Position numbers and translations under genes: made by a program
The notes under the pieces: model-generated
Seen by the model: only the letters and a program-made list of their open reading frames with translations
Database searches by the model: none
Told to the model about the DNA's origin: nothing
Part shown: piece after piece, positions 1 through 14,626 of the stretch
Layout: each line of letters starts with the position of its first letter
How positions within the stretch are numbered: position 1 is the first letter of the stretch
DNA from: an uncultured Allomuricauda sp.
GTDB lineage: Bacteria; Bacteroidota; Bacteroidia; Flavobacteriales; Flavobacteriaceae
Direction of reading: 5' to 3'
Assembly (NCBI GenBank): GCA_963677115.1
Contig: OY781874.1
Location: 2,937,618-3,001,617, forward strand
DNA: 64,000 bases

Positions 1-2
1 CC

Positions 3-389
3 ACTGCGACAGTGGAGGAAGAAAGAACACTTAGGGAGTATTTTGCACAAGACGAGGTCGCTCCTCACTTGGAACAGTACAGGCCTATGTTCAGCTACTT
101 TTCCATGGCGAAGGAAGAAAAGTATACCAAGCAGGTACCATTAAAACCTAGAGTAAACTATTACAAGTGGCTATCCGTTGCGGCGGCAGTAGTTTTGACC
201 TTCGGTATTTATTTTGGTAATCAGTACCAAGAAACAAAACGGTTGGAGGAACAAAAAGCAGAATATGCTTACCAAGAAACCAAAAAGGCTTTTGAACTCT
301 TAGCGGAAAATTTTAACAAGGGTACCGAAAAAGTGGCCTATCTAAAAGAGTTCGAAGAGGCAAAAGACAAAATTTACAATAACAATTAA
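3..389 (+). CDS. 5'-truncated single-pass membrane protein, possibly anti-sigma-factor-like, upstream of the DUF4252 pair
   Basis: Frame is open from the window edge; one hydrophobic helix (WLSVAAAVVLTFGIYF) followed by a helical C-terminus; this arrangement ahead of DUF4252 genes is typical of Flavobacteriaceae. Confidence 0.55.
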   Translation, partial: TATVEEERTLREYFAQDEVAPHLEQYRPMFSYFSMAKEEKYTKQVPLKPRVNYYKWLSVAAAVVLTFGIYFGNQYQETKRLEEQKAEYAYQETKKAFELLAENFNKGTEKVAYLKEFEEAKDKIYNNN

Positions 390-402
390 AAAACGTAACA
401 AG

Positions 403-942
403 ATGAAAAAGTATATTTTAATCACAGTAATGGCACTATTGCCTTTGGCAGGTTTTTCACAATCCCTTTTTGATAAGTTTGAGGATTTGGATGAAGTTAC
501 ATCCGTGGTGGTAAACAAAAGTATGTTCAATCTGCTTGCAAAAATCGATGTGGAGGTAGACGATCCCGAAGCACAGGACTTTATGGATATAGCAAGTAGC
601 TTAAAAAGTCTAAAAGTGTTTACTACCGAGGACAAGAAAATCGGCAATGATATGAAGTCTTCGGTGGACAGCTACCTGAGGTCTTCAAAAATGGAGGAAT
701 TGATGAGGGTAAAGGACAAAGATGCCAATGTCAAATTCTATATCAAAGAAGGTAGGGATGCAGACCACGTTAGCGAGCTGCTTATGTTCGTGACGGGTTT
801 GGGAGATGTTGAGGCGAACGGCAGAAAGTTTGAAACGGTTATTTTGTCCCTTACTGGTGATATTGACCTGAACAAAATCGGTTCGTTGACCAAAAAGATG
901 AACTTGCCCGAAGAGCTCAACGAAGCAGGCAAGAAGAATTAA
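403..942 (+). CDS. DUF4252-like exported protein
   Basis: 179 aa, signal peptide ending AGFSQ, ELMRVKD and LSLTGDIDL motifs recalled for this family. Confidence 0.7.
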   Translation: MKKYILITVMALLPLAGFSQSLFDKFEDLDEVTSVVVNKSMFNLLAKIDVEVDDPEAQDFMDIASSLKSLKVFTTEDKKIGNDMKSSVDSYLRSSKMEELMRVKDKDANVKFYIKEGRDADHVSELLMFVTGLGDVEANGRKFETVILSLTGDIDLNKIGSLTKKMNLPEELNEAGKKN

Positions 943-1056
943 TCATACTACAGTTGACAATAGTAGGTGGGGTATTGTAACAAAATACAAGTAAAACCAA
1001 CTTATTATTGTCAACTGATTTTTTAGATTTCAGAATCAATCAAAAACATAGAGAAA

Positions 1057-1596
1057 ATGAAACAGATCATTAAAACCATGTTGGTGGCCGCTACGGTACT
1101 GTTGGCATCATGTGCTTCGCAGCCCAGTCTACAGGAATATTATGTGGACAATTCCGAGAATCCCAACTTTTTATCCATAGACGTGCCGGCAAGCATTCTA
1201 AAATTGAACGAGGAGGAATTGAACCCGACGCAAAAGGAAGCTATCGAATCGCTTCGTAAGTTCAATCTGTTGGCATTTAAGAAGAATGCCGACAACGAGG
1301 CGGACTACGAGATGGAAAAGAAAAAAGTACGTGAAATCCTTAAAGGAGATGATTTTGTGGAATTGATGAAAATCAATTCAAAATATGGCAAGGGAGTCAT
1401 TAAATACCTAGGTGACGAGGATGCCATTGATGAAGTCATCATTTATGGGGATAGTGAAGATAAAGGCTTTGCCTTGGTTCGTGTACTGGGAAAAAATATG
1501 AACCCGGCACACATTATCCAATTAATGCAGGCCATTCAAAAATCTGATTACAAAGGAGAAGGATTAGGAGAGATAGGAGATTTTCTTAAGGGTTAA
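1057..1596 (+). CDS. DUF4252-like lipoprotein
   Basis: Lipobox LASC, ELMK and FALVRVLG motifs; paralog of the preceding gene. Confidence 0.7.
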   Translation: MKQIIKTMLVAATVLLASCASQPSLQEYYVDNSENPNFLSIDVPASILKLNEEELNPTQKEAIESLRKFNLLAFKKNADNEADYEMEKKKVREILKGDDFVELMKINSKYGKGVIKYLGDEDAIDEVIIYGDSEDKGFALVRVLGKNMNPAHIIQLMQAIQKSDYKGEGLGEIGDFLKG

Positions 1597-1618
1597 TACC
1601 AACCTATTTAAAGATTTG

Positions 1619-1646
1619 AAAAGGGCGACATTTGTCGCCCTTTTTT
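1619..1646 (+). terminator. Intrinsic terminator
   Basis: gggcgac-attt-gtcgccc stem-loop followed by T6, with an A-run upstream. Confidence 0.8.
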
Positions 1647-1722
1647 GTTGTCTCACACAAAAAGTGACCTTCTTTAGTATATTAGTGTCTCAAAATAAGA
1701 ACGCTAACTAAACTAAGGTATC

Positions 1723-2538
1723 ATGGAAAAAGCACAGGAATGGTTCGATTATGCAATTGAATTGGCAAAAGAATTTGGTCCCAAACTAGTCACCGCACTC
1801 ATCATTTATTTGGTGGGTATGTGGGTTGTGAACAAAATTATTAAGGGTACCCGAAAGGTGATGTCCAAAAGTAAGTACGACCTATCTCTCCAGAAATTTT
1901 TACTGAATCTGTTTTCTTGGGCATTAAAGGTATTCTTGATAATCATTGTAATTTCGAGACTGGGGGTAGATGTCACCACCTTTGCCGCAGTGATAGCTGC
2001 TGCCGGGCTTGCTGTGGGCTTAGCGCTGCAAGGCTCGCTCTCCAATTTTGCCGGAGGTGTACTCATCATGATTTTTAAACCGTATAAAATCGATGACCTT
2101 ATTGAAGCACAAGGTGTTTTGGGCAAAGTAAAAGGCATCGAAATCTTTACCACAAAACTGGTGACCCCTCAAAACAGACTGGCCATTGTTCCCAACGGTG
2201 CCATGGCGAACGGGAACATTATCAACTACACTGCGGAAGGAAAAGTAAGGGTAGATGCCGTGGTTGGCGTGGGGTACGATGAGGATATCAAAAAAACCAA
2301 GGAAGTTTTATTAAAGGTGCTGACCTCCAACAAAAAAGTGCTCAAAGATCCGGCGCCTTCCGTAAATGTTTTGGAACTGGCGGACAGCTCCGTGAACTTT
2401 GCCGTTCGTCCCTATTGCAAACCGGAAGATTATTGGGATGTTTATTTTGCTACCTATGAAAACAGTAAACTTGCGTTGGATGAGGCGGGAATTGAAATTC
2501 CATACCCGCACCAAGTGGAAATCCATAAACAGGGATGA
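1723..2538 (+). CDS. mscS: Small-conductance mechanosensitive channel (MscS family)
   Basis: AAGLAVGLALQGSLSNFAGGVLI and PYKIDD motifs; C-terminal GIEIPYP. Confidence 0.92.
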   Translation: MEKAQEWFDYAIELAKEFGPKLVTALIIYLVGMWVVNKIIKGTRKVMSKSKYDLSLQKFLLNLFSWALKVFLIIIVISRLGVDVTTFAAVIAAAGLAVGLALQGSLSNFAGGVLIMIFKPYKIDDLIEAQGVLGKVKGIEIFTTKLVTPQNRLAIVPNGAMANGNIINYTAEGKVRVDAVVGVGYDEDIKKTKEVLLKVLTSNKKVLKDPAPSVNVLELADSSVNFAVRPYCKPEDYWDVYFATYENSKLALDEAGIEIPYPHQVEIHKQG

Positions 2539-2570
2539 ATTTTGCTCCCTTAAACTCATCAAAAGTTAAC

Positions 2571-2592
2571 TATTCCTGCCTTAGTAGGAATA
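2571..2592. terminator. Hairpin between mscS and the displaced purB 3' end (possible ancestral shared terminator)
   Basis: tattcct...aggaata inverted repeat between two convergent stops. Confidence 0.45.
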
Positions 2593-2599
2593 ACAAATA

Positions 2600-2706
2600 C
2601 TACACCCCAGTGTAATTCGCTGGGGTAATTTGTTTCAACTCAGCTTTAATATCATCTGAAACGTCCAAGGTCTCGATAAAATCGGCAATGGATTTTTGGT
2701 TGATTT
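2600..2706 (-). pseudogene. Orphan duplicate of the last 34 codons of purB (INQKSIADF...ITPANYTGV-stop)
   Basis: 2604-2706 is identical to 10358-10460; it ends GTG TAG where the intact gene ends GTT TAA; an in-frame TAA lies immediately upstream, so it is not translated. Confidence 0.9.
2604..2706. repeat. 103-bp perfect direct repeat, left copy (att-like)
   Basis: Base-by-base identity with 10358-10460. Confidence 0.95.
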
Positions 2707-3043
2707 ATCCCAATAAAGAATGGCATCCAAGCACTCTACAACCTTTACTCCCTCTTCCGCTTACAGCTAGGTTTTGTTTTTCCGAAAAGCATCTATATCA
2801 GATGTTTACTTTACTTCTAACAATAAAAATACTACATTTAAGCATCAAAAGCTTACAATAAACCTTTTTAGATTATTGATAAGCTATTTGTTTTTCAAGC
2901 CTGCCTAGGCAGATAACCCCCTTAGAAAACTTTCAACTTCTATTGTAAACCTTTTCGGTTGAGGACCCTAAGTTTTTAACCATGAAGGTTTGGTACGTAT
3001 TGTGGGTACGCTAAATCTTATTAACACTTAACCTATATTAATC

Positions 3044-3565
3044 ATGAAAAAACTACTGATTACCCTATGCCTGCTGGCGGTAAACGCCTGCAGCAACAAT
3101 GACGACAAACCCGTGAACCCAGTGGACTCCCTGCCGCCCATTACCCAAACGGGGGAGGATACGTTTGCATGCCTAATAAACGGCAAGCCCTTTTTTTCTA
3201 GTTATAAAAGGCGAGCTTCATATACATATACCGAAGATGGATATACCTTTTCAATAAGTGGCTCAAGATATGATGATGAAGGAATTAAAACAGTTAGCTT
3301 GGTGGGTTTGGATATTTCAAATTTAATTGAAGAAAAAAATTATTTATTAGAGTCTGAAATGAGTGGCAATTTTTATGGCAGGTACGCTATATACAATTCA
3401 GGTATAACAGCTTACTCTTCATCACATGATACCCCTGGTGTTTTAAACATTACTAAAATTGATTTGGATGAGGGCTTTGTTTCTGGAACATTTGAATTTA
3501 TAGCTAATGACGGAGAAGGAAATATTTTAAGTTTCACCGACGGCCGTTTCGACCTAGAATTTTGA
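3044..3565 (+). CDS. Variable lipoprotein A1 (DUF6252-like)
   Basis: Lipobox AVNAC; LPPITQTGEDTFACLING N-terminal block; SGTFEF...DGRFDLEF C-terminus; family name from recall. Confidence 0.7.
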   Translation: MKKLLITLCLLAVNACSNNDDKPVNPVDSLPPITQTGEDTFACLINGKPFFSSYKRRASYTYTEDGYTFSISGSRYDDEGIKTVSLVGLDISNLIEEKNYLLESEMSGNFYGRYAIYNSGITAYSSSHDTPGVLNITKIDLDEGFVSGTFEFIANDGEGNILSFTDGRFDLEF

Positions 3566-3597
3566 ACAGCTTAAAATCAACCACTTAAAAATTAAAG

Positions 3598-3631
3598 GCA
3601 GCATACCCCAAATCCATAAATTTTAAATCTA
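3598..3631 (+). repeat. 34-nt pre-gene element, copy 1
   Basis: GCAGCATACCCCAAATCCATAAATTTTAAATCTA, starting 40 nt before the ATG at 3638. Confidence 0.9.
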
Positions 3632-3637
3632 CAAATC

Positions 3638-4159
3638 ATGAAAAAACTACTGATTACCCTATGCCTGCTGGCGGTAAACGCCTGTAGCAACACCGATGAC
3701 AAGCCCGTGAACCCAGTGGACACCCTGCCGCCCATTACCCAGACAGGGGAGGATACGTTTGCATGCTTAATAAACGGCAAACCCTTTTTTTCTAGTAAAG
3801 ACAGAAGTGCATTTTATACCTATGCTGATGGTGCTTACACCTTGGGAATCAGTGGGACTAGAAATGATGATATTGGCTTAAGGTCAATTCTTTTAGCAGG
3901 AATCGATATTAAAGAAGGGATTAAAGAAGGAATCTGTCCACTTAATTCTGAAAATAGTGGAAGCTTTGACGCCACCTATCTTATAGATGGAGGAGTCACG
4001 CTGAATTCATCAACAACTGATGAGGCTCCAGGTATTTTAACTATCACTCGATTTGACCTAGAGGAATTTATTGTTTCGGGCACCTTTGAGTTTACGGTGG
4101 TAGATGATGAAGGTAATAAATACGAAATGACCGACGGCCGTTTCGACTTAGAATTTTGA
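3638..4159 (+). CDS. Variable lipoprotein A2 (DUF6252-like)
   Basis: Same conserved ends as A1, divergent middle. Confidence 0.7.
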   Translation: MKKLLITLCLLAVNACSNTDDKPVNPVDTLPPITQTGEDTFACLINGKPFFSSKDRSAFYTYADGAYTLGISGTRNDDIGLRSILLAGIDIKEGIKEGICPLNSENSGSFDATYLIDGGVTLNSSTTDEAPGILTITRFDLEEFIVSGTFEFTVVDDEGNKYEMTDGRFDLEF

Positions 4160-4191
4160 ACAGCTTAAAATCAACCACTTCAAAATTAAAG

Positions 4192-4225
4192 GCAGCATAC
4201 CCCAGATCCATAAACTTTAAATCTA
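4192..4225 (+). repeat. 34-nt pre-gene element, copy 2
   Basis: GCAGCATACCCCAGATCCATAAACTTTAAATCTA, 40 nt before the ATG at 4232. Confidence 0.9.
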
Positions 4226-4231
4226 TATAAT

Positions 4232-4966
4232 ATGAAAAGAACAATTTTTATTATGCTTTCCTTTTTCATCTTCCAGAGTTGTGAAAAGGACGATACCGCA
4301 TTGGATTGCCAAGCCGACTGCACTACTGTGCAGGGCCAAATAGTTACGGCCAAAGGAGAGCCCTTGCCCAATATATCTGTGGCTTTTGATCATTTTGTCA
4401 GCCAAGGAATTGGAAGTTCCCGTCGAAAAATCAAAGAAACAAGGACTGACGAGAATGGTTATTATACCATGAAATTTTTTATTAAAGATGATGAACTCGG
4501 TGTCGAAGCTGATGGACTTTTTGAATTGAATATCGATTACAGCAACCTTGATTCCAAGGTTTACATGAGTACAAATCAATATTATAAACACACGATGTAT
4601 TATTTGGATAAACGGGACACTACAATCGTTTTGGACTTCTATAACCCTAAAAAAGCCTATATCACGGTAAACCTCAATGGTTTTAATCCAAGTACTGAAG
4701 ATGATTATTTTAAGTTAGAATCATTTTTTCCTTCTGGAATAAAAAATGAGAAGAATAGTATATGGGGTTTTGATTATGTATTGGGTTATGGTACAAGTTA
4801 TAAAGCAACCTCGGCCAATTCTAAAATTGACAGTGTTTTAGTTGCGGAAAATGATAATAATTGGATCAGTATCCGGAGATGGAAGGGTGGTGTAAACTTG
4901 ATAGATGAGGACACTATTTTTTTTGTTCCGGAAAACAATTCAATTAAGCTGGATTTTATCTATTGA
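4232..4966 (+). CDS. Variable lipoprotein B1, unknown function
   Basis: Lipobox FQSC followed by EKDD; TVQGQIVT...GEPL resembles a carboxypeptidase-regulatory/prealbumin-like beta domain. Confidence 0.7.
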   Translation: MKRTIFIMLSFFIFQSCEKDDTALDCQADCTTVQGQIVTAKGEPLPNISVAFDHFVSQGIGSSRRKIKETRTDENGYYTMKFFIKDDELGVEADGLFELNIDYSNLDSKVYMSTNQYYKHTMYYLDKRDTTIVLDFYNPKKAYITVNLNGFNPSTEDDYFKLESFFPSGIKNEKNSIWGFDYVLGYGTSYKATSANSKIDSVLVAENDNNWISIRRWKGGVNLIDEDTIFFVPENNSIKLDFIY

Positions 4967-5006
4967 TGAAATACAAGACCATATACTATTTCTAACCATT
5001 TGTTAA

Positions 5007-5040
5007 GCAGCATCCCCCAGATCCATAAACTTTAAATCTA
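5007..5040 (+). repeat. 34-nt pre-gene element, copy 3
   Basis: GCAGCATCCCCCAGATCCATAAACTTTAAATCTA, 40 nt before the ATG at 5047. Confidence 0.9.
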
Positions 5041-5046
5041 CAAATT

Positions 5047-5553
5047 ATGAAAAAACTACTGATTACCCTATGCCTGCTGGCGGTAAACGCCTGTGGCAAC
5101 AATGACGACAAACCCGTGAACCCAGTGGACACCCTGCCGCCCATTACCCAAACGGGGGAGGATACGTTTGCATGCTTAATCAATAGAAAACCTTTTTTTT
5201 CCAGTTACAAGAGACGAGCTACTTACTCAGGAAATTCTATTAGTATAAGTGGTTCGAGACAGGATGATATGGGACTAAGATCTGTGTCTATTCAGGGTTT
5301 TAATCTAGAAATCATTGAGGAAGGCTTGTATGTGTTAGAATTAGAGAAAAGCGGTAGTTTCTTCGGAATTTACTTAGTTGATGGAGGACTCACACTTGAT
5401 ATTGGAACCTCTGATAATTTACCTGGTACGCTAACCATCACTCGATTTGATCTGGATGAATTTATCGTTTCGGGCACCTTTGAGTTTACGGTGGTAGATG
5501 ATGAAGGTAATAAATACGAAATCACAGACGGCCGTTTCGACTTAGAATTTTGA
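5047..5553 (+). CDS. Variable lipoprotein A3 (DUF6252-like)
   Basis: Conserved ends; shorter variable segment than A1, A2 and A4. Confidence 0.7.
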   Translation: MKKLLITLCLLAVNACGNNDDKPVNPVDTLPPITQTGEDTFACLINRKPFFSSYKRRATYSGNSISISGSRQDDMGLRSVSIQGFNLEIIEEGLYVLELEKSGSFFGIYLVDGGLTLDIGTSDNLPGTLTITRFDLDEFIVSGTFEFTVVDDEGNKYEITDGRFDLEF

Positions 5554-5585
5554 ACAGCTTAAAATCAACCACTTCAAAATTAAAG

Positions 5586-5619
5586 GCAGCATACCCCAGA
5601 TCCATAAACTTTAAATCTA
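5586..5619 (+). repeat. 34-nt pre-gene element, copy 4
   Basis: GCAGCATACCCCAGATCCATAAACTTTAAATCTA, 40 nt before the ATG at 5626. Confidence 0.9.
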
Positions 5620-5625
5620 CATAGT

Positions 5626-6144
5626 ATGAAAAAACTACTGATTACCCTATGCCTGCTGGCGGTAAACGCCTGTAGCAACAATGACGACAAACCCTTGAAC
5701 CCAGTGGACACCCTGCCGCCCATTACCCAAACCGGAGAGGATACATTTGCATGCTTAATAAACGGCAAGCCCTTTTTTTCCAGCAAAGACAGAAGAGCAT
5801 CTTATACGTTTACGGATGGCGCTTATACCTTGGGAGTAAGCGGTTCAAGAAATGACGAGATTGGATTGAGAACTATTTCAATACAGGGGATAGATGTTGC
5901 CCCATTAAACGAAGGTATTTATAATCTTGAATCTGAAAAAAGCGGAAATTTTAGTGGACTCTATGGAATAGATGGAGGTCTATTACTTGATGTAGGAACT
6001 TCTGATAATTTACCGGGTACGCTGACCATCACTCGATTTGATCTGGATGAATTTATCGTTTCGGGCACCTTTGAGTTTACGGTAGTAGATGATGAAGGTA
6101 ATAAATACGAAATCACCGAAGGCCGTTTCGACCTAGAATTTTGA
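5626..6144 (+). CDS. Variable lipoprotein A4 (DUF6252-like)
   Basis: Conserved ends; 5' variable part resembles A2, 3' part resembles A3. Confidence 0.7.
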   Translation: MKKLLITLCLLAVNACSNNDDKPLNPVDTLPPITQTGEDTFACLINGKPFFSSKDRRASYTFTDGAYTLGVSGSRNDEIGLRTISIQGIDVAPLNEGIYNLESEKSGNFSGLYGIDGGLLLDVGTSDNLPGTLTITRFDLDEFIVSGTFEFTVVDDEGNKYEITEGRFDLEF

Positions 6145-6176
6145 AAAACTCAAAGTCAACTAATTAAAAATTAAAG

Positions 6177-6210
6177 GCAGCATACCCCAGATCCATAAAC
6201 TTTAAATCTA
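6177..6210 (+). repeat. 34-nt pre-gene element, copy 5
   Basis: GCAGCATACCCCAGATCCATAAACTTTAAATCTA, 39 nt before the ATG at 6216. Confidence 0.9.
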
Positions 6211-6215
6211 CACTT

Positions 6216-6950
6216 ATGAAAAGAACAATTTTTATTATGCTTTCCTTTTTCATCTTCCAAAGTTGTGAAAAGGACGATACCGCTTTGGAATGCCAGACCG
6301 ACTGCACTACAGTGCAGGGCCAGATAGTTACGGCCAAAGGAGAACCCTTGCCCAACATACCTGTGGCTTTTGATTACCAATACATTCTTGGTATTGGTTC
6401 CAAAGTCAGAAGGATAAAAAAAATAACGACCGATAAAAATGGCAATTATAAAATGCAATTTTTTGTCAAGGACGAGGAACTTACCGGAGACGCTGGGGGA
6501 TATTTTGAATTGGTAATCGATTATAGCAACCTTGATTCCGAGGTTTACATAAGTACGGATAGTTATTACTCACTTGCAGTTGGACAGATTAGCAATCGTG
6601 ACACTACGATCACACTGGACTTTTATAACCCTAAAAAAGCCTATATCACGGTAAACCTCAATAGTTTTAATCCGAGTACTGAAGATGATTCATTTATTAT
6701 AAGATCATTTTACCCAACAGGGCGTAAGATTGGCCAAAATAGTTTATTGGATACTGAATATCAAATTGCACAAGGCACAGAGGTTAAAGCTAATTCAGTT
6801 AATACCATTTCAGACAGTGTTCTTGTAGCATTGGAAGACATCAACCGAATTGGTGTGAATAGGAGGAAAAACGGTGTGGAATTGGAGACTGAATACTATA
6901 CAATTTATGTGGACAAGAATAACGAAATAGAATTGAACTATAGTTATTAG
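6216..6950 (+). CDS. Variable lipoprotein B2, paralog of B1
   Basis: Nearly identical first 48 aa and internal RDTTI.LDFYNPKKAYITVNLN.FNPSTEDD block; same length (244 aa). Confidence 0.7.
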   Translation: MKRTIFIMLSFFIFQSCEKDDTALECQTDCTTVQGQIVTAKGEPLPNIPVAFDYQYILGIGSKVRRIKKITTDKNGNYKMQFFVKDEELTGDAGGYFELVIDYSNLDSEVYISTDSYYSLAVGQISNRDTTITLDFYNPKKAYITVNLNSFNPSTEDDSFIIRSFYPTGRKIGQNSLLDTEYQIAQGTEVKANSVNTISDSVLVALEDINRIGVNRRKNGVELETEYYTIYVDKNNEIELNYSY

Positions 6951-6981
6951 GGTGTTATATATAAAAAACATTTTTAATGGC

Positions 6982-7015
6982 GCAGCATCCCTCAAATCCA
7001 TAAACTTTAAATCTA
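6982..7015 (+). repeat. 34-nt pre-gene element, copy 6
   Basis: GCAGCATCCCTCAAATCCATAAACTTTAAATCTA, 40 nt before the ATG at 7022. Confidence 0.9.
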
Positions 7016-7021
7016 TAAATT

Positions 7022-10000
7022 ATGAAAAAACTACTGATTTGCTTGACATTATTGACCTGCTTTGGCCTCTCCGCCCAATTGCATATCGACCTTGAGGTCG
7101 CCGACCGCACCAACCAAGCGTTCAGCTTGTTGGACAAAAGCAAGGTTCCCCACAACATGCTACTGGATTATGGGTACGATTTTGTGGACGTGACCAACTA
7201 CGACGGCGTGCTCCGGGACAACAATTATCTAGTACCCTCCGTGTACCGCGACCTGTACAACAGTGTGGTCTCCATGCGTACCACCCTAACCGTGCCGGAA
7301 CTGGTGGACCCTATGCTCATGGAACAGGGGTGGAAGAGCACTTCCAAGACGGAGCTGAACAAACTGGGCAAAGGGGCCATGGCCTCGGCAGTGGTCCTCA
7401 ACGGCATGTACTACCAGTATGCCCGCTTTCGCCCCGATGCGTTGCAGAACGGCCTTATTGCGGTGGAGAACAACAAGTACCGCGATGTGTATGTGGGCAC
7501 GGAGTGGCAGGACCCCTACGAGGAAATGGAAGTGTTTGCTATGGCGCTACCCGTTACGCAGATCAGCAACTCCAAGGTGTCCGTGGTGCTGGGCAAAACG
7601 GATTGGCGCACCAACCAACCGGGCCTGGTGGACGAATTTGCCGTGGATTTTGGCGATGGCGGCGGGTTTGAGCCCATGTTGTTGGGCGTATCCGTAGATC
7701 ATTATTTTGAACAGGACGGGGAGTACGCGTGGACGTTTCGGCTAAAGCTCACGGACGGTACCTTTAAGTACTGCCGCACCCCGGTAAAGGTCACCGGTAA
7801 GGCCAAACAACAGACCCTGACGGCCCGTAACCCTGACTGCGATAAGAAACCCTGGGTAGAGACCATTACAGCCGCTAAGGGGTATATGGGGATAAAGGGA
7901 GTGGCCAATTTACAGATAGCCCCTGCCAAAGAATGTACTAAAATCCACAAACCCTTGATTGTTGTAGAAGGGTTTGATACGGGTTTGATGGGAAATGATC
8001 CAGAATGGGGTGATACACACCTTAAATCTTTTTTGGATGAGGTGAGGTTTAAGTCTCAAAGTCAAGAATTGCAAAACCTTATTACCGAAGACACCGAAGA
8101 AAGTTTTGACATCATCTACGTAAACTGGGAAGATGGCACCGATTGGCTGCAGCGCAATGCCTATGCCCTGGAGGCGGTGATAGAATGGGTGAACAACAAT
8201 AAGGAGGAAGATGCAGCGCCCAACGTTATCTTGGGCCAGAGCATGGGCGGGGTCATTGCCCGGTATGCCCTTCGCGATATGGAGAACAACAATGTGGACC
8301 ACGATACCAGCCTCTACATAAGCCACGATGCCCCGCACCAAGGTGCCCACGTGCCCCCCGGCTTTTTATTTGCCGCACGCCATGTGCTCAACGAGCTTAT
8401 TACCACGCCCATTGGCGATGTTACGGTAGCCGTTGCCAGTAATGAGTTTCCGGTGGACGATGCCCGCCAATTGATAGATAGGCCCGCTGTAAAGCAAATG
8501 CTCATCAATTATGTGGACTCCAATTACGAACTGAACAACACGGTGCACAAGGCATGGCAGACCGAGCTCAAGAACATGGGCTACCCGCAGCAAACACGCA
8601 ATATAGCCATCAGCAATGGTAGCCATTGCGCAGAAGGCTACGGGTTGGAACCCGGCAAAAGCCTTTTCTGGCTGCACGGTAGGGCCTCTACCAGCCTTAT
8701 TGGGGACTTCCTGCTCTTTCTTTATCCAGCCTTAGGAGGAATCCCCGGTGCGGCTTTTGGGGATATTCCTGCCGCTATACTGGGTTTTGTACCGGGAAAG
8801 ACCACCCTTAAAACGGATTTTCAGGCATGGGCCATACCAGGGAACGTAGAAGACTTGATTTATAAGGGATGGATCCAGTACGAAAAGAAAAGTTTATGGA
8901 TTTTGCCCATAACCCGCACCCTTACCAATAAAGCCATTAAATGGCAGGGAGAGAATGTGTATTGGGCAAATTTTCCGGGAGGGGCTATGCCGTTTATCAA
9001 TACTGTAGATGATTTTAATATAAATGACGAGGAAACTATAGTGGACTTTTTGTTGAATTATGATATCACCTTGGAAACACCCCCGGACCTTAATTTTATA
9101 CCCACGACCAGTGCCCTGGATGTAGGCGGCAATAATGTGGCACTTACCCAGGAAGACCATTACAGAGTCTATACCATGGATGCGGAACTACCGGATGGGC
9201 TAAAGATTCAATTTGATAATTTTGCCACCACTTACAATATTTCTGGGAAGAATACGGATCATATTTCCTTTAATAGGGCCAATGGCGATTGGTTGGCCGA
9301 TGAGCTTAAGAATGCAGGCACCGTTTTCGATTGTACATTTTTATGTGGTTCCAGTTTTGTGATCGAGGGAAGCAGCAAGCTTTGTGAACAAGAAATTTAT
9401 TTTGTGGATGTAAAGGGAGATATGCAGGTAGAATGGAGTTCCGATAACATGGAGGCAGCATTACCCAGCGACCCCAACAGCCCGGCAACATCGTTTACCA
9501 CCTCACCAAATTCCTATAACGAAACATTGACCATTTATGCCATTTTGACCTCCGAAAGCTGTGCAGGAGACCCCATAGTTCTGGAAAAAACTGTCCATGT
9601 GGGCAAGCCTGGGCTACCATCCAACTTATGGGGACCCGAAATTGTTTTAACAGGAGCTTTGGTCAAGTATTATGGCGGACCTGCAGAGGGGGCTGATTCT
9701 TATGAATGGTGGCTGCCCCATCCTTTTGAAGTAGTAGACCAGTTTGATTATTTTGGGGATAATTGGCAAATATTAAGTACCAATACCTATTATGATGTGG
9801 CCAATGTATTTACTGGATATGCAAAACATGAGGGGTTGGTACAGCTTATGGGCGTAAACGAGTGTGGGCGGGGACCTGCTATAACAATGCATGTAAAACA
9901 TGTCGGAGAGGGAGAAATTGGTGAAGGAGGTATTCCTTTGGAACAGAATCCAGGATACCAGTCGAACCCTAATTCAAATGAAACCGAGGATGGTGTAGTG

Positions 10001-10255
10001 ATCTATCCCAATACCGCAACGGACGAGGTAAACATCACCTTGGAATCCTCCATGGGTCCAGAAGGGATTGCTCCATCAAAAATCTTGGGTATAGCTGTAT
10101 ACCAACAGCTACAACAAGCACCTAAAAAGCAACTGATTTTTTCCTCACCTAAGACTTCAGCATTGATAGATGTCAGGGATTTAAATGATGGGTACTATTT
10201 TGTAGTGATAGAAACCGATAAAGGCCCGGTGACCAAAATTCTTTTGGTAAAATAA
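7022..10255 (+). CDS. T9SS type-A cargo protein with an alpha/beta-hydrolase (lipase/esterase-like) domain
   Basis: Signal peptide ending LSAQ; GQSMG nucleophile elbow at 8234-8248 (aa 405-409); IVVEGFD and DAPHQGA motifs; C-terminal IYPNT...DVRDLNDGYYFVVIETDKGPVTKILLVK sorting domain. Confidence 0.78.
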   Translation: MKKLLICLTLLTCFGLSAQLHIDLEVADRTNQAFSLLDKSKVPHNMLLDYGYDFVDVTNYDGVLRDNNYLVPSVYRDLYNSVVSMRTTLTVPELVDPMLMEQGWKSTSKTELNKLGKGAMASAVVLNGMYYQYARFRPDALQNGLIAVENNKYRDVYVGTEWQDPYEEMEVFAMALPVTQISNSKVSVVLGKTDWRTNQPGLVDEFAVDFGDGGGFEPMLLGVSVDHYFEQDGEYAWTFRLKLTDGTFKYCRTPVKVTGKAKQQTLTARNPDCDKKPWVETITAAKGYMGIKGVANLQIAPAKECTKIHKPLIVVEGFDTGLMGNDPEWGDTHLKSFLDEVRFKSQSQELQNLITEDTEESFDIIYVNWEDGTDWLQRNAYALEAVIEWVNNNKEEDAAPNVILGQSMGGVIARYALRDMENNNVDHDTSLYISHDAPHQGAHVPPGFLFAARHVLNELITTPIGDVTVAVASNEFPVDDARQLIDRPAVKQMLINYVDSNYELNNTVHKAWQTELKNMGYPQQTRNIAISNGSHCAEGYGLEPGKSLFWLHGRASTSLIGDFLLFLYPALGGIPGAAFGDIPAAILGFVPGKTTLKTDFQAWAIPGNVEDLIYKGWIQYEKKSLWILPITRTLTNKAIKWQGENVYWANFPGGAMPFINTVDDFNINDEETIVDFLLNYDITLETPPDLNFIPTTSALDVGGNNVALTQEDHYRVYTMDAELPDGLKIQFDNFATTYNISGKNTDHISFNRANGDWLADELKNAGTVFDCTFLCGSSFVIEGSSKLCEQEIYFVDVKGDMQVEWSSDNMEAALPSDPNSPATSFTTSPNSYNETLTIYAILTSESCAGDPIVLEKTVHVGKPGLPSNLWGPEIVLTGALVKYYGGPAEGADSYEWWLPHPFEVVDQFDYFGDNWQILSTNTYYDVANVFTGYAKHEGLVQLMGVNECGRGPAITMHVKHVGEGEIGEGGIPLEQNPGYQSNPNSNETEDGVVIYPNTATDEVNITLESSMGPEGIAPSKILGIAVYQQLQQAPKKQLIFSSPKTSALIDVRDLNDGYYFVVIETDKGPVTKILLVK

Positions 10256-10353
10256 AAGTAACTGCCTATCCACAGCAACCAAGATGGACTAGATTTTTGA
10301 TTTTGATTCATCTTGAGCAGAAATCTAAAGTCTCGAACTGGCAGAATTTTAGA

Positions 10354-11697
10354 TTAAACCCCAGTGTAATTCGCTGGGGTAATTTGTTTCAACTCAGCTT
10401 TAATATCATCTGAAACGTCCAAGGTCTCGATAAAATCGGCAATGGATTTTTGGTTGATTTTTTCGTTGGTACGCGTTAAACCTTTTAAGGCTTCGTATGG
10501 GTTGGGATAGCCCTCTCTTCGTAAAATGGTCTGAATGGCCTCGGCAACCACGGCCCAATTATCCTCTAAATCTTGCTCGAACTTGGATTGGTTCAGTACC
10601 AATTTGCCCAATCCTTTTAAAGTAGACTGGAAACCAACTATGGTATGTGCAAAAGGCACCCCCACATTTCGTAAAACAGTACTGTCCGTAAGATCACGTT
10701 GTAATCTGGAAATCGGGAGTTTGGCGGATAAATGTTCAAAAATGGCATTGGCCAAGCCCAAATTTCCTTCCGAATTTTCAAAATCGATAGGATTCACCTT
10801 GTGCGGCATGGCCGAAGAGCCAACTTCTCCTTTTTTGATTTTCTGTTTAAAGTAATCCATGGAAATGTAGGTCCAAAAGTCGCGATCCAAATCAATCAAA
10901 ATGGTGTTGATGCGTTTAAGGCAATCGAACAAAGCCGCCATATGGTCGTAGTGCTCGATTTGGGTAGTGGGGAAGGAGTGGTGCAAGCCCAGTTTCTCCT
11001 GTACAAACTGCTTTCCAAAGGCTCTCCAATCATTATTGGGATACGCCACCTTGTGTGCGTTGTAATTCCCTGTGGCGCCACCGAACTTAGCAGCACTGGG
11101 TATGTCGTTCAATAAATTGAACTGCTCTTTAAAACGTTCCACAAACACGTCGATTTCCTTGCCTAAACGGGTAGGGGAAGCGGGCTGACCGTGGGTCCTG
11201 GCCAACATAGGGATGTTTTTCCATGTCTTGGCCAGTTCCTTCAATTTTTCAAAAACCTCCAAATAGGAAGGAACGTACACATCGTTCATCGCCTCTTTGA
11301 TGGACAAAGGAATGGCCGTGTTGTTTATGTCTTGGGAAGTCAGTCCAAAGTGAATGAACTCCTTGTATTTCTGAAGGTCTAAAGCATCAAACTTTTGTTT
11401 GATGAAGTATTCCACGGCTTTTACATCGTGATTGGTAGTTTTTTCAATATCCTTGATGGCTTGGGCGTCTTCGGAAGAAAATTCTTGATAGATTTTCTGC
11501 AATTCGGGAAACAGCGCCGTATTGAAATCGGCCAATTGCGGCAAAGGGACTTCGCAAAGCGCTATAAAATATTCAATCTCTACTTGAACACGGTATTTGA
11601 TCAGGGCTTCTTCCGAAAAGTAGTCTTTTAAGGCTTTGGTTTTGTTTCTATATCTGCCGTCAATCGGCGAAATGGCGTTTAGTTGTGTCAGGGACAT
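10354..11697 (-). CDS. purB: Adenylosuccinate lyase
   Basis: LNAISPIDGRY N-terminus, TNHDVKAVEY, signature GSSAMPHKVNPIDFENSEGN; start moved to the ATG at 11697. Confidence 0.96.
   Translation of the reverse strand: MSLTQLNAISPIDGRYRNKTKALKDYFSEEALIKYRVQVEIEYFIALCEVPLPQLADFNTALFPELQKIYQEFSSEDAQAIKDIEKTTNHDVKAVEYFIKQKFDALDLQKYKEFIHFGLTSQDINNTAIPLSIKEAMNDVYVPSYLEVFEKLKELAKTWKNIPMLARTHGQPASPTRLGKEIDVFVERFKEQFNLLNDIPSAAKFGGATGNYNAHKVAYPNNDWRAFGKQFVQEKLGLHHSFPTTQIEHYDHMAALFDCLKRINTILIDLDRDFWTYISMDYFKQKIKKGEVGSSAMPHKVNPIDFENSEGNLGLANAIFEHLSAKLPISRLQRDLTDSTVLRNVGVPFAHTIVGFQSTLKGLGKLVLNQSKFEQDLEDNWAVVAEAIQTILRREGYPNPYEALKGLTRTNEKINQKSIADFIETLDVSDDIKAELKQITPANYTGV
10358..10460. repeat. 103-bp perfect direct repeat, right copy (inside the purB 3' end)
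   Basis: Identical to 2604-2706. Confidence 0.95.
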
Positions 11698-11743
11698 GGT
11701 CAAGAAAATTTTGAAAGGTTCAAAGATACTTAAACGCCATGGT

Positions 11744-12340
11744 TTAGACACCCAAATCGGCCAACTTATCCAGAGTTTTTTTTGCGCGGTTCCGGTATCC
11801 AGTGCTTCCGTTGGGGTAGCTATCTTCCAGAACTAGTTTGAGTTCGGAGTGGACCCAATCAAATTTTAATCCCAAATAGTACAGACTCGTCATTGCAAAA
11901 ACCTTGGGCGCCATATTCATAGGACCAATGAGCCAATCAAAACAAGCGGTCATTATTTTTTCCAATTGGTCATCTGTAATATTTTTAAGGAAATCGGACT
12001 TCTTTTTCTTAAAATAGGCCTCACAGAGCATTTCGCACACATGGGCAATGGGGCGAATACAGGATTCGGACTTTAATTCAGATAAACCGTTCACAAAATT
12101 ATCCATAAAAGGGAGGATGTAGTGTAGTTCCTTTCGCATCAAATGGTCAAAAGTCCAACTTGCATTAAAGGTACCTTTCTTGTCTTCCCATAAAATTTCT
12201 TGATAAAGCACTTGTGCCAATTGGGGTTCCTGCTGTAATTGAATAACCAATTCGTCAATCTGGACCTTGGAAATTCTCCCAGAATGAAGTGCGATATGAA
12301 GCTGCTCTTGCGTCACCAAAAAATCAATATATTTACTCAA
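11744..12340 (-). CDS. Conserved hypothetical helical-repeat protein
   Basis: All-helical pattern, C-terminal GYRNRAKK; no catalytic motif seen; the start may be the GTG at 12316. Confidence 0.6.
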   Translation of the reverse strand: MSKYIDFLVTQEQLHIALHSGRISKVQIDELVIQLQQEPQLAQVLYQEILWEDKKGTFNASWTFDHLMRKELHYILPFMDNFVNGLSELKSESCIRPIAHVCEMLCEAYFKKKKSDFLKNITDDQLEKIMTACFDWLIGPMNMAPKVFAMTSLYYLGLKFDWVHSELKLVLEDSYPNGSTGYRNRAKKTLDKLADLGV

Positions 12341-12349
12341 ATCCTGTAG

Positions 12350-12805
12350 GTGATGAAAATAGTGAAAAAAATAGCAATTGTCCTATTGATCGTATTGATC
12401 GGTATGCAATTTTACCGACCAGTAAAAAATAAGGCCGAAGGCGATTATGTAGCAGCCTTTGAAACGGATACCCAACCTTCGCCAGAAGTAAAAATAATTT
12501 TGGAAGCAGCCTGCTACGATTGTCATAGCGCCAACACGGAATATCCTTGGTACAATAATATTGCTCCTGTTTCTTACTGGTTGGCCGATCATGTTGAAGA
12601 TGGAAAGCGTCATTTAAATTTTTCCGATTGGGAAAATTACGATGCTAAAAAGAAGGATCACAAGCTGGAAGAGATAATCGAGGAGGTGAAGGAAGGTGAA
12701 ATGCCCTTGAACGAATATACTTGGACCCATGCTGATGCCAAATTGTCCGACGAGCAAATGCGTCTACTACTGTCCTGGGCAGAGGCCACCAGAGCTAATT
12801 ATTGA
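12350..12805 (+). CDS. Haem-binding (cytochrome c type) protein
   Basis: CxxCH motif (ACYDCHS), YPWY, G..HLNFS.W and EMP motifs; N-terminal membrane anchor. Confidence 0.8.
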   Translation: MMKIVKKIAIVLLIVLIGMQFYRPVKNKAEGDYVAAFETDTQPSPEVKIILEAACYDCHSANTEYPWYNNIAPVSYWLADHVEDGKRHLNFSDWENYDAKKKDHKLEEIIEEVKEGEMPLNEYTWTHADAKLSDEQMRLLLSWAEATRANY

Positions 12806-13490
12806 TAAGATTCTCCACCAAAACCGGTAGTCCCTTGGCAGCGGTTTTTGGGATTACGGTCAGGTTATCAAAATCTGTAGATCGAATGTTGGGCTTGGGG
12901 TCAATAAAGTATATTGGAGTCTGTTTTGGGGCATAATGAATCAAACTTGCCGCAGGATAGACTTGCATAGAGGTGCCCACTATAATCAAAATTTCGGCTT
13001 GTTGGGCAATCTGTACTGCGGTCTCCAACATGGGTACCATTTCGCCAAACCAAACAATATGTGGACGTAGCTGATGTCCGTTTTTGTCTGTATCGCCCAA
13101 AATCAAGTCCTTTTTCCAATCCAATATATGGTTTTCATCCATCGTGCTCCGCACTTTGAACAATTCTCCGTGCAAATGCACCACGTGGGAACTGCCGGCC
13201 TGCTCGTGCAGATTATCTACATTTTGAGTTATAATACTGACATCAAAAGCCTGTTCCAGTTCTGCCAATGCTAAATGACCTTTGTTTGGGACAACCTCCA
13301 ATAATTGTCTTCTCCTTTGGTTGTAAAATTCAAGTACAAGTTCTGGGTCTTTTGCAAACCCTTGTGGCGAGGCCACTTGCATCACATCATGGCCTTCCCA
13401 AAGGCCATTTTCGTCACGAAAGGTCTTAAGACCACTTTCGGCACTCATGCCAGCACCTGTTAACACAACTATTTTTTGTTTTTCCATCAT
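12795..13490 (-). CDS. cobB: NAD-dependent protein deacylase (sirtuin)
   Basis: GAGMSAESG, TQNVDNLHE, HG, LRPHIVWFGE and GTS..VYPAA motifs. Confidence 0.92.
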   Translation of the reverse strand: MMEKQKIVVLTGAGMSAESGLKTFRDENGLWEGHDVMQVASPQGFAKDPELVLEFYNQRRRQLLEVVPNKGHLALAELEQAFDVSIITQNVDNLHEQAGSSHVVHLHGELFKVRSTMDENHILDWKKDLILGDTDKNGHQLRPHIVWFGEMVPMLETAVQIAQQAEILIIVGTSMQVYPAASLIHYAPKQTPIYFIDPKPNIRSTDFDNLTVIPKTAAKGLPVLVENLINN

Positions 13491-14626
13491 TTATTTTTCC
13501 CCAACAGATTTAAAATTATGCTTTTGAACATAGAAATTCCAGTCGTAATTAGCTCATCCGGAAAATCATAGTCTGCATTGTGCAGGGCTGGAGTGGATTC
13601 ACCGGCCCCAATGCCGAACATTGAAGTTTTGTAGGATTTGGAAAACCAACCAAAATCCTCACCGAATTTAAACGGAACAGGACGTTCTACAGTTGGAAAA
13701 TTGTTGGATGAGGCAGCCTGTCTTACCAAGTGGGTACATTCGTTGTGAACGGAACTAGCCGGAAAATATTCCATCCAATCCAGTTTAGACCCCAAGTGCC
13801 ATTGTTTGCAAACCTTGTCCACAATCCCGGTTAATTTGGATTGCAGTTTCTTCATTTGGTCTGTGTTCCAAGTACGAAGCGTGTAATGCAATTCAGCATT
13901 TGCTGGTGAAATACCGTATGATGTTTGGCCCATTTTGAGGTGTATCGGTGTTACAATGGCAAATTTTGGGTCCATTGGTTCCGGCGCGTTCAATTTTGAT
14001 ATGCTTTGAACAATTTCAGCCAAGGCCAGAGCCGGATTTATGCCATTCTCAGGCTCTGATGCATGGGATTCTTTGCCTTTTAGCTGTATGGAAACACTTA
14101 TCACCTCTGCAGAAAATCCCTGTTCTGTGATGAGTATGCTGTGCAGTGGCACTTTGGGAATATTGTGCAAGGCGAAGACATAATCGGTCTGCAATCCTTT
14201 AAATTTTTTGTCCTTAACCATTCTCAGTGCTCCTTCACCGGTTTCCTCGGCCGGTTGAAAAAGTAAGATTATAGTTCCTGATTTTAAGTGGCTTACCGAC
14301 AGCCATTTTGCTATACCGGCCATAATGGTCATATGGCCATCATGCCCGCATTTGTGGGAGACTCCATTTGTATTGGACTTATGCGGAAAGGTATTGGTTT
14401 CCTGAATCGGCAATGCATCCAATTCGCATCTTAGGGTTATTCTGGGTCCGTTATCAGAGAATTTAAAAACTACCGCCATACCGGCACCTCCAATCCCTTC
14501 AATTATTTTGCTGGGGCTGTAGGGAGCAATAAATTCTTTTATGATATCCGCCGTTCCCTGTTCCCTGTTGGATAGGTCTGGGTCTGCATGCAATTTATGC
14601 CTTAATGCCACGAGTTGATTATCCAT
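13487..14626 (-). CDS. M20-family amidohydrolase
   Basis: RHKLHADPDLS, LRCELDALP, HKCGHDGH, FQPAEE, EDF and LHN motifs; start moved to the ATG at 14626. Confidence 0.88.
   Translation of the reverse strand: MDNQLVALRHKLHADPDLSNREQGTADIIKEFIAPYSPSKIIEGIGGAGMAVVFKFSDNGPRITLRCELDALPIQETNTFPHKSNTNGVSHKCGHDGHMTIMAGIAKWLSVSHLKSGTIILLFQPAEETGEGALRMVKDKKFKGLQTDYVFALHNIPKVPLHSILITEQGFSAEVISVSIQLKGKESHASEPENGINPALALAEIVQSISKLNAPEPMDPKFAIVTPIHLKMGQTSYGISPANAELHYTLRTWNTDQMKKLQSKLTGIVDKVCKQWHLGSKLDWMEYFPASSVHNECTHLVRQAASSNNFPTVERPVPFKFGEDFGWFSKSYKTSMFGIGAGESTPALHNADYDFPDELITTGISMFKSIILNLLGKNK

Follow-up and report, generated by a model that had tools for sequence, protein, structure and literature searches.

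A recombining lipoprotein array and a predicted type IX-secreted hydrolase between mscS and purB of an uncultured Allomuricauda

Genes and repeated sequences between mscS and purB

The stretch analysed here (the window) comprises 64,000 nt of contig OY781874.1 (GCA_963677115.1) from an uncultured Allomuricauda sp. of the Flavobacteriaceae, and the locus under study, at positions 2604-10460, is a block of lipoprotein genes that ends in the gene for a predicted secreted hydrolase. According to the list of open reading frames (ORFs), seven genes, all co-oriented on the plus strand, lie between mscS (1723-2538), which is immediately to the left of the array, and purB on the minus strand (10354-11697/11751; Pfam Lyase_1 and ASL_C), in the order A1-A2-B1-A3-A4-B2-C. 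The A genes encode lipoproteins of the DUF6252 family, with A1 (3044-3565, 173 aa) and A4 (5626-6144, 172 aa) classed as DUF6252/Riean_0653 and A2 (3638-4159, 173 aa) and A3 (5047-5553, 168 aa) as DUF6252. B1 (4232-4966) and B2 (6216-6950) encode lipoproteins of a second family, and C (7022-10255) encodes the predicted hydrolase of 1,077 aa. The remaining ORFs of at least 50 aa in the interval all overlap these seven genes and look spurious, and among the ORFs in 2604-10460 we found no candidate for a recombinase, a reverse transcriptase or a cas gene. An earlier note on this DNA had described both the seven co-oriented genes at these positions and the lack of a recombinase, reverse transcriptase or cas gene in the block, and our inspection of the ORFs of the interval agrees with it on the two points.

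The same note had reported a perfect repeat of the purB end on both sides of the block. Positions 2604..2706 and 10358..10460 are indeed identical in 103/103 bases, a match that arose in 0/100 shuffles. The right copy is the functional 3' end of the minus-strand purB gene and the left copy, starting 66 nt past the mscS stop, is a displaced copy of that end. On the minus strand its final letters are ...GTG TAG, with a synonymous last codon and another stop, whereas the live purB ends in ...GTT TAA, and this differing stop codon identifies the left copy as a genuine displaced gene end. A terminator scan placed a plus-strand terminator-like hairpin with a T-rich tail in the first 23 nt of each copy (2604-2626 and 10358-10380). 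At sites in other genomes where nothing lies between the two genes, the purB-end hairpin, which is located within the last purB codons, faces the convergent mscS; the hairpin is thus shared by the mscS and purB ends, so that DNA inserted between the genes separates them from the shared element.

Both copies are 103/103 identical also in a second strain of the species (L170, flanking genes ~98-99% identical in nucleotides), though the two strains differ by 1-2% in the flanks, suggesting that gene conversion may keep the copies identical. We infer that the repeat is an insertion scar with a terminator role. It would have been left by a Campbell-type or homology-facilitated insertion or replacement within the purB 3' end; the mscS-side copy was probably kept as terminator for mscS and the right copy as terminator for C, and gene conversion would hold both copies at the same sequence.

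Six of the seven genes are preceded by one and the same 34-nt element, only A1 being without it, which again matches the earlier description. The six copies (3598..3631, 4192..4225, 5007..5040, 5586..5619, 6177..6210 and 6982..7015) are all on the plus strand and end 6-7 nt before the ATG; the last one carries one mismatch. The 64-kb window holds no further copy, and shuffles gave 0. The 16-nt core of the element, GCAGCATACCCCAAAT, present in the first copy, was found in 2.45 Mb of sequence, allowing up to two mismatches, in array spacers only and without exception on the coding strand; at least four species have it. The core is better conserved than the proteins, which indicates that it is functional. 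RNAalifold predicted zero base pairs for 15 spacers from 6 loci, and the lack of a predicted structure argues against an attC-like site. In the window the sixth copy and the 18 nt with which C starts are of the A type, and L170 has another version of them. The 3' half of the element thus comes in two versions that track the start of the downstream gene, as would be expected of an initiation region. The element appears to be regulatory, acting as an internal promoter, an operator or a translation-initiation or RNA-processing signal. Rather than serving as a recombinase site, it would travel with each unit and add homology for recombination.

Upstream of A1 a candidate operon promoter is located at 2810..2840 on the plus strand, consisting of TTTA (2810-2813), a 19-nt spacer and TACATTTA (2833-2840). 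The Bacteroidota promoter consensus is TTTG-N19-21-TAnnTTTG, and another lineage of the group (L081) has TTTG-N19-TACATTTA at the corresponding position. Conservation of the site extends over five species. It overlaps with a conserved non-coding plus-strand leader (2820..2950) that begins AACAATAAAAATACTACATTTAA..., contains the palindrome CTGCCTAGGCAG at 2901-2912 and ends ...GATAACCCCCTTAGAAAACTTTCAAC. The leader is common to L170, L171, L081 and L085 and missing from L087/L088. From its sequence the site is probably the operon promoter, followed by a 5' untranslated region of ~200 nt. The leader with its palindrome may act as an operator or as a cis-regulatory RNA; it had no match in Rfam.

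The mscS-purB interval in related genomes

Comparison of purB loci from 80 species representatives showed that purB and mscS are convergent and ~50-80 bp apart in several genera, the interval being empty in relatives at a greater distance (L002, L003, L012, L013, L023 and L047). In at least six other Flagellimonas/Allomuricauda lineages a C homologue with 61-76% identity lies between the two genes, accompanied by 0-5 genes of type A, 0-2 of type B and, in some cases, others. Read from mscS to purB, the order is A-C in L085, A-A-A-A-C in L087/L088, OMP-A-A-A-C in L171, A-A-A-x-x-A-A-C-x in L172 and OMP-B-B-C-[purB fragment]-esterase in L081/L089, and in L086 the contig begins at C. The operons of L081 and L171 are headed by a gene for an OmpW-sized beta-barrel, and in L081 an esterase gene follows C. 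Empty sites, differing cargo and changes in the number and order of the cassettes, even within a species, were therefore all found in the interval comparison that the earlier note had proposed. Its term island, on the other hand, is not supported, as orthologues of the A/B-C block are found in synteny throughout a Flagellimonas sub-clade and most members carry the block without the long repeat. The block therefore predates the repeat and does not represent a discrete element that moved recently; it is an old resident of a mscS-purB hotspot in the sub-clade and not peculiar to this genome.

The nearest species representative (L001, Allomuricauda sp. CAU 1633) carries a different, two-gene insert of 2.2 kb at the same site (L001:11360-13540), which encodes a 384-aa ImmA/IrrE-like metallopeptidase with a helix-turn-helix domain (Peptidase_M78; CapP/RmrA-like in PADLOC) and a 190-aa DUF4411 protein and looks like a toxin-antitoxin or defence pair. 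A scan of 87 purB loci by fuzzy matching revealed duplications of the purB end in three closely related lineages only, namely the window species (including L170), L081 and L001. In L001 a copy of ~30 nt next to mscS brackets the insert with the purB end. L081 has a copy of ~33 nt by mscS and a second one of ~111 nt, 90% identical, after C. The block itself is present without a long repeat in L085, L087, L088 and L171.

The second copy in L081 is a purB 3' fragment that, together with the true purB end, encloses a single esterase gene (PF00756, 314 aa) and a 42-aa ORF (L081:13328-14865; also in L089), an independent second case of purB-end duplication, located to the right of C. Just beyond the purB stop of some relatives we observed a palindromic element of ~60 nt that resembles repetitive extragenic palindromes or miniature inverted-repeat transposable elements (TGTCACATCGAGCGCAGTCGAGATGTC...TCTCGACT.CGCT.GAAC.GACA; L081:7487-7545 and 13262-13320, L171:14980-15040, L086:3255-3315). 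It has been duplicated with the purB end in L081 and does not occur in the window.

Within the species the array differs from strain to strain. L170 has the order A1-A3-B1-Anew-B2'-A1copy-C, with middle segments that the window does not contain, a different 5' end on C and junctions in the conserved gene ends. Further joints were found in Logan contigs of three more strains, which are assembled sequences that break at repeats and lose rare variants. Along the A and B genes the nucleotide identity switches sharply from 87-100% to 20-60%, with breakpoints within near-identical tracts of 100-250 nt. Such abrupt switches inside identical tracts indicate that tandem duplication, unequal crossing-over and gene conversion suffice, with no dedicated machinery. 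The repeat unit of the array is ~2.0 kb long and consists of A-A-B, present twice. B1 shows a chimaeric affinity, its C-terminal half being nearer to a B protein of another species and its N-terminus and 5' end identical to those of B2, which points to gene conversion.

The array is thus reshuffled between strains by ordinary homologous recombination between paralogues. Exchange by homologous or site-specific recombination had been suggested in the earlier note; the homologous part is supported, as strain-variable gene order was seen, and the site-specific part is not, as the block holds no recombinase and the 34-nt element is unstructured. For the same two reasons, and because only three gene families are involved and the breakpoints lie in gene ends, the proposal of a cassette-like, integron-like new diversifying system is not supported. 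In this species tandem duplication of the ~2-kb A-A-B unit has enlarged the lipoprotein part. Near-identical 5' ends, 3' ends and spacers recombine in RecA-type fashion, which homogenises the gene ends by gene conversion and also alters copy number, order and middle segments between strains. The genes of the block have a ratio of non-synonymous to synonymous substitutions (dN/dS) of 0.22-0.29 vs 0-0.05 in the flanks, that is, they are under purifying selection that is weaker than in the flanks.

The encoded proteins and the A-C pair

C begins with a signal peptide that can be read from the sequence as MKKLLICLTLLTCFGLSA|Q, ending ...LSA|Q, and contains a PKD-like domain (~aa 201-247), an alpha/beta-hydrolase core with the invariant motifs GQSMGG (aa 405-410, nt 8234-8251) and SHDAPHQG, and Ig-like domains (~aa 780-960). 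GQSMGG, D436 and several His residues are invariant among 26 C sequences. The C-terminus (aa 994-1072, nt ~10001-10237) is a type-A sorting domain of a type IX secretion system (T9SS). PF18962 (Por_Secre_tail) matches C with E = 3.8e-5 and 24.3 bits, just below the cut-off of 27 bits, the profile of the C family matches the solved T9SS sorting domains 8qb1, 8glk and 8glj, and many C homologues carry PF18962 or the name 'T9SS type A sorting domain-containing'. C is hence predicted to be exported by Sec and T9SS as cargo with a type-A sorting domain. Signal peptide, sorting domain and conserved GxSxG motif agree with the earlier designation of the last gene as a T9SS hydrolase, and we take C to be a predicted PGAP1-like serine hydrolase of the esterase/lipase-like kind. 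A Foldseek search with a model of the whole of C returned Ig/FN3 arrays only and was silent on the catalytic core.

Homologue searches gave at least 493 clusters of C-type proteins at 90% identity. Between species C proteins are 61-76% identical in amino acids, a deep and roughly equal divergence, with purB being 90-95% identical to that of the window in L081, L085 and L086. The G+C content of C is raised in every Flagellimonas/Allomuricauda locus examined, and we therefore rejected it as a mark of recent transfer. A hypervariable patch precedes the hydrolase core of C (window ~7793-8058, ~aa 258-346); against L170 it shows 87-92% identity or cannot be aligned, and run X7 has a 69-nt segment of it swapped, the rest of C being 97-100% identical.

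The A proteins match the NCBIfam model NF052634 ('Riean_0653 family') with 145.5 bits at a cut-off of 57 over positions 1-172 of 176, which places them within this family. With Pfam PF19765 (cut-off 27.2 bits) A1 scores 30.2 and A3 27.2 bits, and A2 and A4 fall just under. More than 1,250 clusters of A-type proteins at 90% identity were retrieved in the homologue searches. Across DUF6252 an N-terminal LPPxTQTGxxTFxCLINGxPF and a C-terminal SGTFEF...GRFD motif are conserved and the middle varies. The same pattern is seen in the DNA of the array: the four A genes share 77-100% identity over their first ~150 nt and 20-77% in the middle (~nt 180-400), and A2, A3 and A4 share 83-100% over their last ~100 nt plus the spacer. 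The constant ends and variable middles that the earlier note had described are thus real at the protein and the DNA level, but they are not a purely local cassette feature; as the pattern extends across the whole family, it reflects in part structural constraint. An AlphaFold model of A, based on a 36-sequence alignment, is all-beta and confident (pLDDT 90, the value also given for A4) and suggests a beta-barrel-like fold. Foldseek found nothing significant for this model in the PDB (best E = 0.05, TM below 0.3), and a PDB sequence search with A gave noise alone.

B1 and B2 are 244 aa long each, with a weak CarboxypepD_reg-like N-terminal domain in Pfam. They are old paralogues, the 5' end of B2 being homogenised with that of B1. 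The B family forms ~260 clusters at 50% identity, and among the loci compared B occurs only in those of Flagellimonas. In Bacteroidota, lipoproteins are exported to the surface by the signals C-X-K-(D/E)2, SDDDD or SDDFE at +2 to +6 after the lipobox Cys (PMC5080379). The mature N-terminus of B, C-E-K-D-D, matches the first of these, and that of A, C-S-N-N-D-D with the family consensus C-(N/S)-N-D-D-D, resembles SDDDD/SDDFE. Owing to these acidic, export-signal-like N-termini both A and B are predicted to be surface-exposed lipoproteins.

The arrangement of A upstream of C extends far beyond the mscS-purB interval. We scanned metagenomes with the C alignment and obtained 80 loci with 25-67% identity, 62 of which had at least 650 nt upstream of C. 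In 53 of these 62, over the whole range of 25-67% C identity, a co-oriented A gene immediately precedes C, the median gap being 37 nt, so that the co-occurrence of A and C put forward for testing by the earlier note was confirmed. Single A copies account for 40 loci, pairs for 9, and sets of three and of four for 2 each, and whole A-C modules are duplicated in tandem in L115, L129, L135, L152 and L166. In the reverse look-up, an A protein of Flavobacterium dankookense (P0287) was found to be followed by a 1,043-aa PGAP1/Por_Secre_tail protein, that of Mangrovimonas is solitary (L169), and the A genes of Gelidibacter alternate with C genes in truncated form, among them one of 432 aa that matches C with E = 1e-55. 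A and C, the latter of ~1,070 aa, are thus a functionally linked, conserved pair that is widespread in marine and freshwater Flavobacteriia. The Gelidibacter region (G. algens, L168:1-12375) holds further genes: a protein with DUF7379, LCAT, CHAT and TPR domains, which exceeds 1,800 aa and is truncated by the edge of the locus, precedes the degenerate A/C copies, which are followed by an ORF opening with an Rhs-core-like motif (...GRLYEPVVHRFLMPDNFVQDP...) and then by leucine-rich repeat (LRR) and HEAT-repeat proteins. The whole looks like a graveyard of toxin and immunity genes.

A literature search found no publications on DUF6252 and one phenotype only for the family, a loss of haemolysis in Riemerella anatipestifer. 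In that species haemolysis was strongly cut by transposon insertions that had hit Riean_0653 four times independently, the loss was complemented in trans, and the purified protein was not haemolytic by itself (PMC7881567). The role of Riean_0653 in haemolysis is thus positive and not protective, which fits poorly with a pure immunity protein. The Riemerella homologue of A was not among the 120 homologue matches listed for query P0238, a literature search on the neighbours of Riean_0653 gave nothing, and a review of the T9SS in R. anatipestifer names neither a lipase nor a hydrolase among the cargo. In the same haemolysis screen (PMC7881567, Table 1) the other complemented gene, Riean_0790, encodes an outer-membrane protein with a CarboxypepD_reg domain, the class weakly seen in B, and purB (Riean_0391) was hit as well. 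Both coincidences with the present locus are probably due to chance.

Function of the locus and comparison with known systems

Taken together, we read the locus as a vertically inherited, fast-evolving accessory operon at the mscS-purB hotspot, made up of the A-C core pair and a recombining lipoprotein array with a function as surface partners, a reading that we consider about evenly balanced between right and wrong. A and B would work at the cell surface with the secreted esterase/lipase-like C, either docking the enzyme or capturing a hydrophobic substrate or product, and their exposed, variable halves would be under diversifying pressure. This role is favoured by the beta-barrel-like fold of A and by the export signals that A and B carry, as well as by the OmpW-sized barrel and esterase genes in relatives, the degradative architecture of C and the Riean_0653 phenotype. 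As to the role of A and B as such, the surface-partner function is tentatively favoured over immunity, at somewhat short of even confidence, with the rest falling to other roles. The description that fits the locus best is that of a familiar theme, namely a secreted enzyme and its cognate envelope lipoproteins, expanded into a recombining array of paralogues at a chromosomal hotspot, the A-C pair itself being uncharacterised.

A similar theme is known from Sus-like systems and polysaccharide utilization loci, which likewise combine in one predicted operon an enzyme gene with lipoproteins carrying export signals and obtain variable binding surfaces by the expansion of paralogues. However, no SusC/SusD pair adjoins the module, and its enzyme is an esterase/lipase-like T9SS cargo, not a glycoside hydrolase. 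The array also shares conserved 5' regions and signal peptides, variable centres, mosaic alleles and recombination-driven changes in copy number and order with the variable surface-protein genes of Mycoplasma (vlp/vsp) and Neisseria (opa/pil type). In contrast to those, the copies in the window all look expressible and are tied to an enzyme gene, with no sign of phase variation or silent donors.

Several observations weigh against the surface-partner reading. The multiple diverged A copies, the deep divergence of C, the strain turnover and the degenerate A-C genes near an Rhs-like fragment in L168 fit an arms race at least equally well, and no SusC/SusD-type transporter adjoins the module in the window or in L081, L085, L167 and L170-L172. 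The enzymatic class of C depends on a sub-threshold PGAP1 match (PF07819, E = 0.0038) and the invariant GxSxG, with PF07819 recorded for several homologues, and no solved structure matches the catalytic domain, as a PDB sequence search retrieved the sorting and PKD domains only. The Riean_0653 phenotype may not apply to the window locus. A perfect 103-bp repeat around an old locus requires a recent event or continuing gene conversion. No RNA-seq data were found; the sole matching runs derive from the sample of the genomic runs, have a flat depth and look genomic.

Much of this material could instead describe a T9SS-dependent effector-immunity system, in which C would be an antibacterial or membrane-attacking lipase like Tle4/TplE, A and in some strains B its cognate or orphan immunity proteins, and the array a bank of immunity alleles directed at the diverged C alleles of competing strains. 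We regard this as a serious rival, although on the unlikely side. C belongs to the PGAP1-like class of GxSxG hydrolases, the synteny of A and C is tight, and a locus holds 1-5 diverged A copies that turn over between strains while C stays 96.5% identical. Between species C is 61-76% identical vs 90-95% for purB in the relatives measured, the dN/dS is raised, a solitary A gene exists (L169), and in Gelidibacter degenerate A and C genes stand next to an Rhs-like C-terminal fragment and LRR/HEAT proteins. The model for such a pair, Tle4/TplE with Tli4 from type VI secretion systems (T6SS), shares with the window a secreted PGAP1-like GxSxG hydrolase encoded beside one or several small envelope lipoproteins, and fast evolution. 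Yet C is predicted to be exported by Sec and T9SS, and no VgrG, Hcp or PAAR context links the locus to a T6SS; the lipoprotein genes lie upstream, their products are predicted to be surface-exposed, and A has no detectable similarity to Tli. Moreover, ~15% of C genes are without an adjacent A, L081/L089 have B only, and strains differ in whether A or B adjoins C. Loss of Riean_0653 lowers a lytic phenotype and is complemented (PMC7881567), which is unexpected for immunity. A has neither a fold match to a known immunity protein nor a PADLOC match, C is a multi-domain PKD/Ig enzyme with an architecture typical of T9SS degradative cargo, and our literature search gave no T9SS effector-immunity system. 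That the DUF6252 and PGAP1-like pair is the first such T9SS-dependent system, with recombining immunity banks spreading into the purB-hairpin hotspot, we hold to be unlikely.

Two further explanations concern the mobility of the block and not the function of its products. It resembles a cis-mobilizable element (CIME) in that direct repeats of a gene 3' end surround an integrase-free block and the gene is restored by the repeat, which would make the repeats attL and attR; a tyrosine or serine recombinase supplied in trans would insert such elements at the purB 3' end and excise them again, and the differing cargos would stem from repeated insertion. The perfect repeats bracket the whole block, the other stop codon of the left copy fits a displaced original gene end, an imperfect palindrome lies within the repeat, and two lineages have unrelated cargo between copies of the purB end (the esterase in L081, ~111 nt; ImmA/IrrE with DUF4411 in L001, ~30 nt). 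We nevertheless consider a CIME-like origin improbable. No recombinase lies in or beside the block, no cognate integrative and conjugative element or integrase was found, and no integrase-bearing element was seen at purB in the 87 loci, the purB-end duplications being confined to three related lineages. The block occupies the same site without a long repeat in L085, L087, L088 and L171 and hence predates it, the L081 repeat brackets the esterase gene only and not C, and the repeat length depends on the lineage (30, 33, 103 and ~111 nt).

The other explanation, acquisition as in integrons or rAID-1 islands with the 34-nt element as an attC-type site that captures and reorders unrelated cassettes, we find very improbable. 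What speaks for it is a conserved, array-specific element that precedes genes of three unrelated families and is conserved across species, and a cassette order that varies by strain; small-gene arrays with a repeated intergenic motif and strain-variable content are indeed common to rAID-1, integrons and the window. rAID-1 is defined by a XerD-like tyrosine recombinase at the 5' end, after which come two or more co-oriented low-G+C genes with repetitive spacers, and an IntI or XerD-like recombinase, of which the block has none, is defining for both systems (10.1101/471110). The window shares the co-oriented genes and repetitive spacers, but it is mscS and not a recombinase that precedes the array, and its lipoproteins are paralogues of two families, whereas rAID-1 arrays consist of unrelated immunity genes. 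Integrons combine IntI and an attI site beside the array with a structured attC, an imperfect palindrome at the 3' ends of the cassettes, and the window array has no recombinase ORF and 0 pairs in its spacers, the 34-nt element being devoid of palindrome and secondary structure. Only three gene families take part, two of them simple paralogue sets, the breakpoints lie in the 100-250-nt near-identical coding ends and not just at the element, and in L170 the 3' half of the element co-varies with the downstream 5' end like an initiation region.

Returning to the surface-partner reading, the A-C pair is widespread across marine and freshwater Flavobacteriia and has been little studied. If A and B dock the enzyme or capture its products, the locus would stand for a Sus-like scheme of a new type that serves particle-degrading bacteria for ester or lipid substrates; should they act in immunity, contact-independent bacterial warfare would be extended to the T9SS. 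Either way, the locus exemplifies how ordinary recombination between conserved gene ends builds a strain-variable array of surface proteins, and how insertion of DNA between two convergent genes duplicates a hairpin that lies in coding sequence and is common to both.

In the flanks, mscS, DUF4252 and extracytoplasmic function (ECF) sigma factor genes lie on one side and purB and SIR2 on the other. PADLOC reported nothing for A, B or C, and an Rfam scan of 1-14000 (E up to 1) gave weak terminator-like matches near 1547-1663 alone and none for the 34-nt element or the leader; the weak small-RNA-like matches upstream of mscS are explained by a strong terminator at 1618-1645. A sigma-70 promoter scan returned 23 sites vs 21 expected and was set aside as uninformative, this promoter type being the wrong one for Bacteroidota. 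In L170 a gene for a large serine recombinase (Resolvase, Recombinase and Zn_ribbon_recom; L170:19934-20507) abuts SIR2 ~3 kb past purB, and the window has an M20 peptidase gene (13487-14839) at the corresponding position, suggesting that the recombinase marks a separate integrative element that is missing from the window. Directly upstream of mscS, genes for the ECF sigma factor, an anti-sigma-like protein and two or three DUF4252 lipoproteins form a cluster (window 12-1596; also in L081, L085 and L170), which is present in genomes with an empty site, too, and is thus not part of the array.

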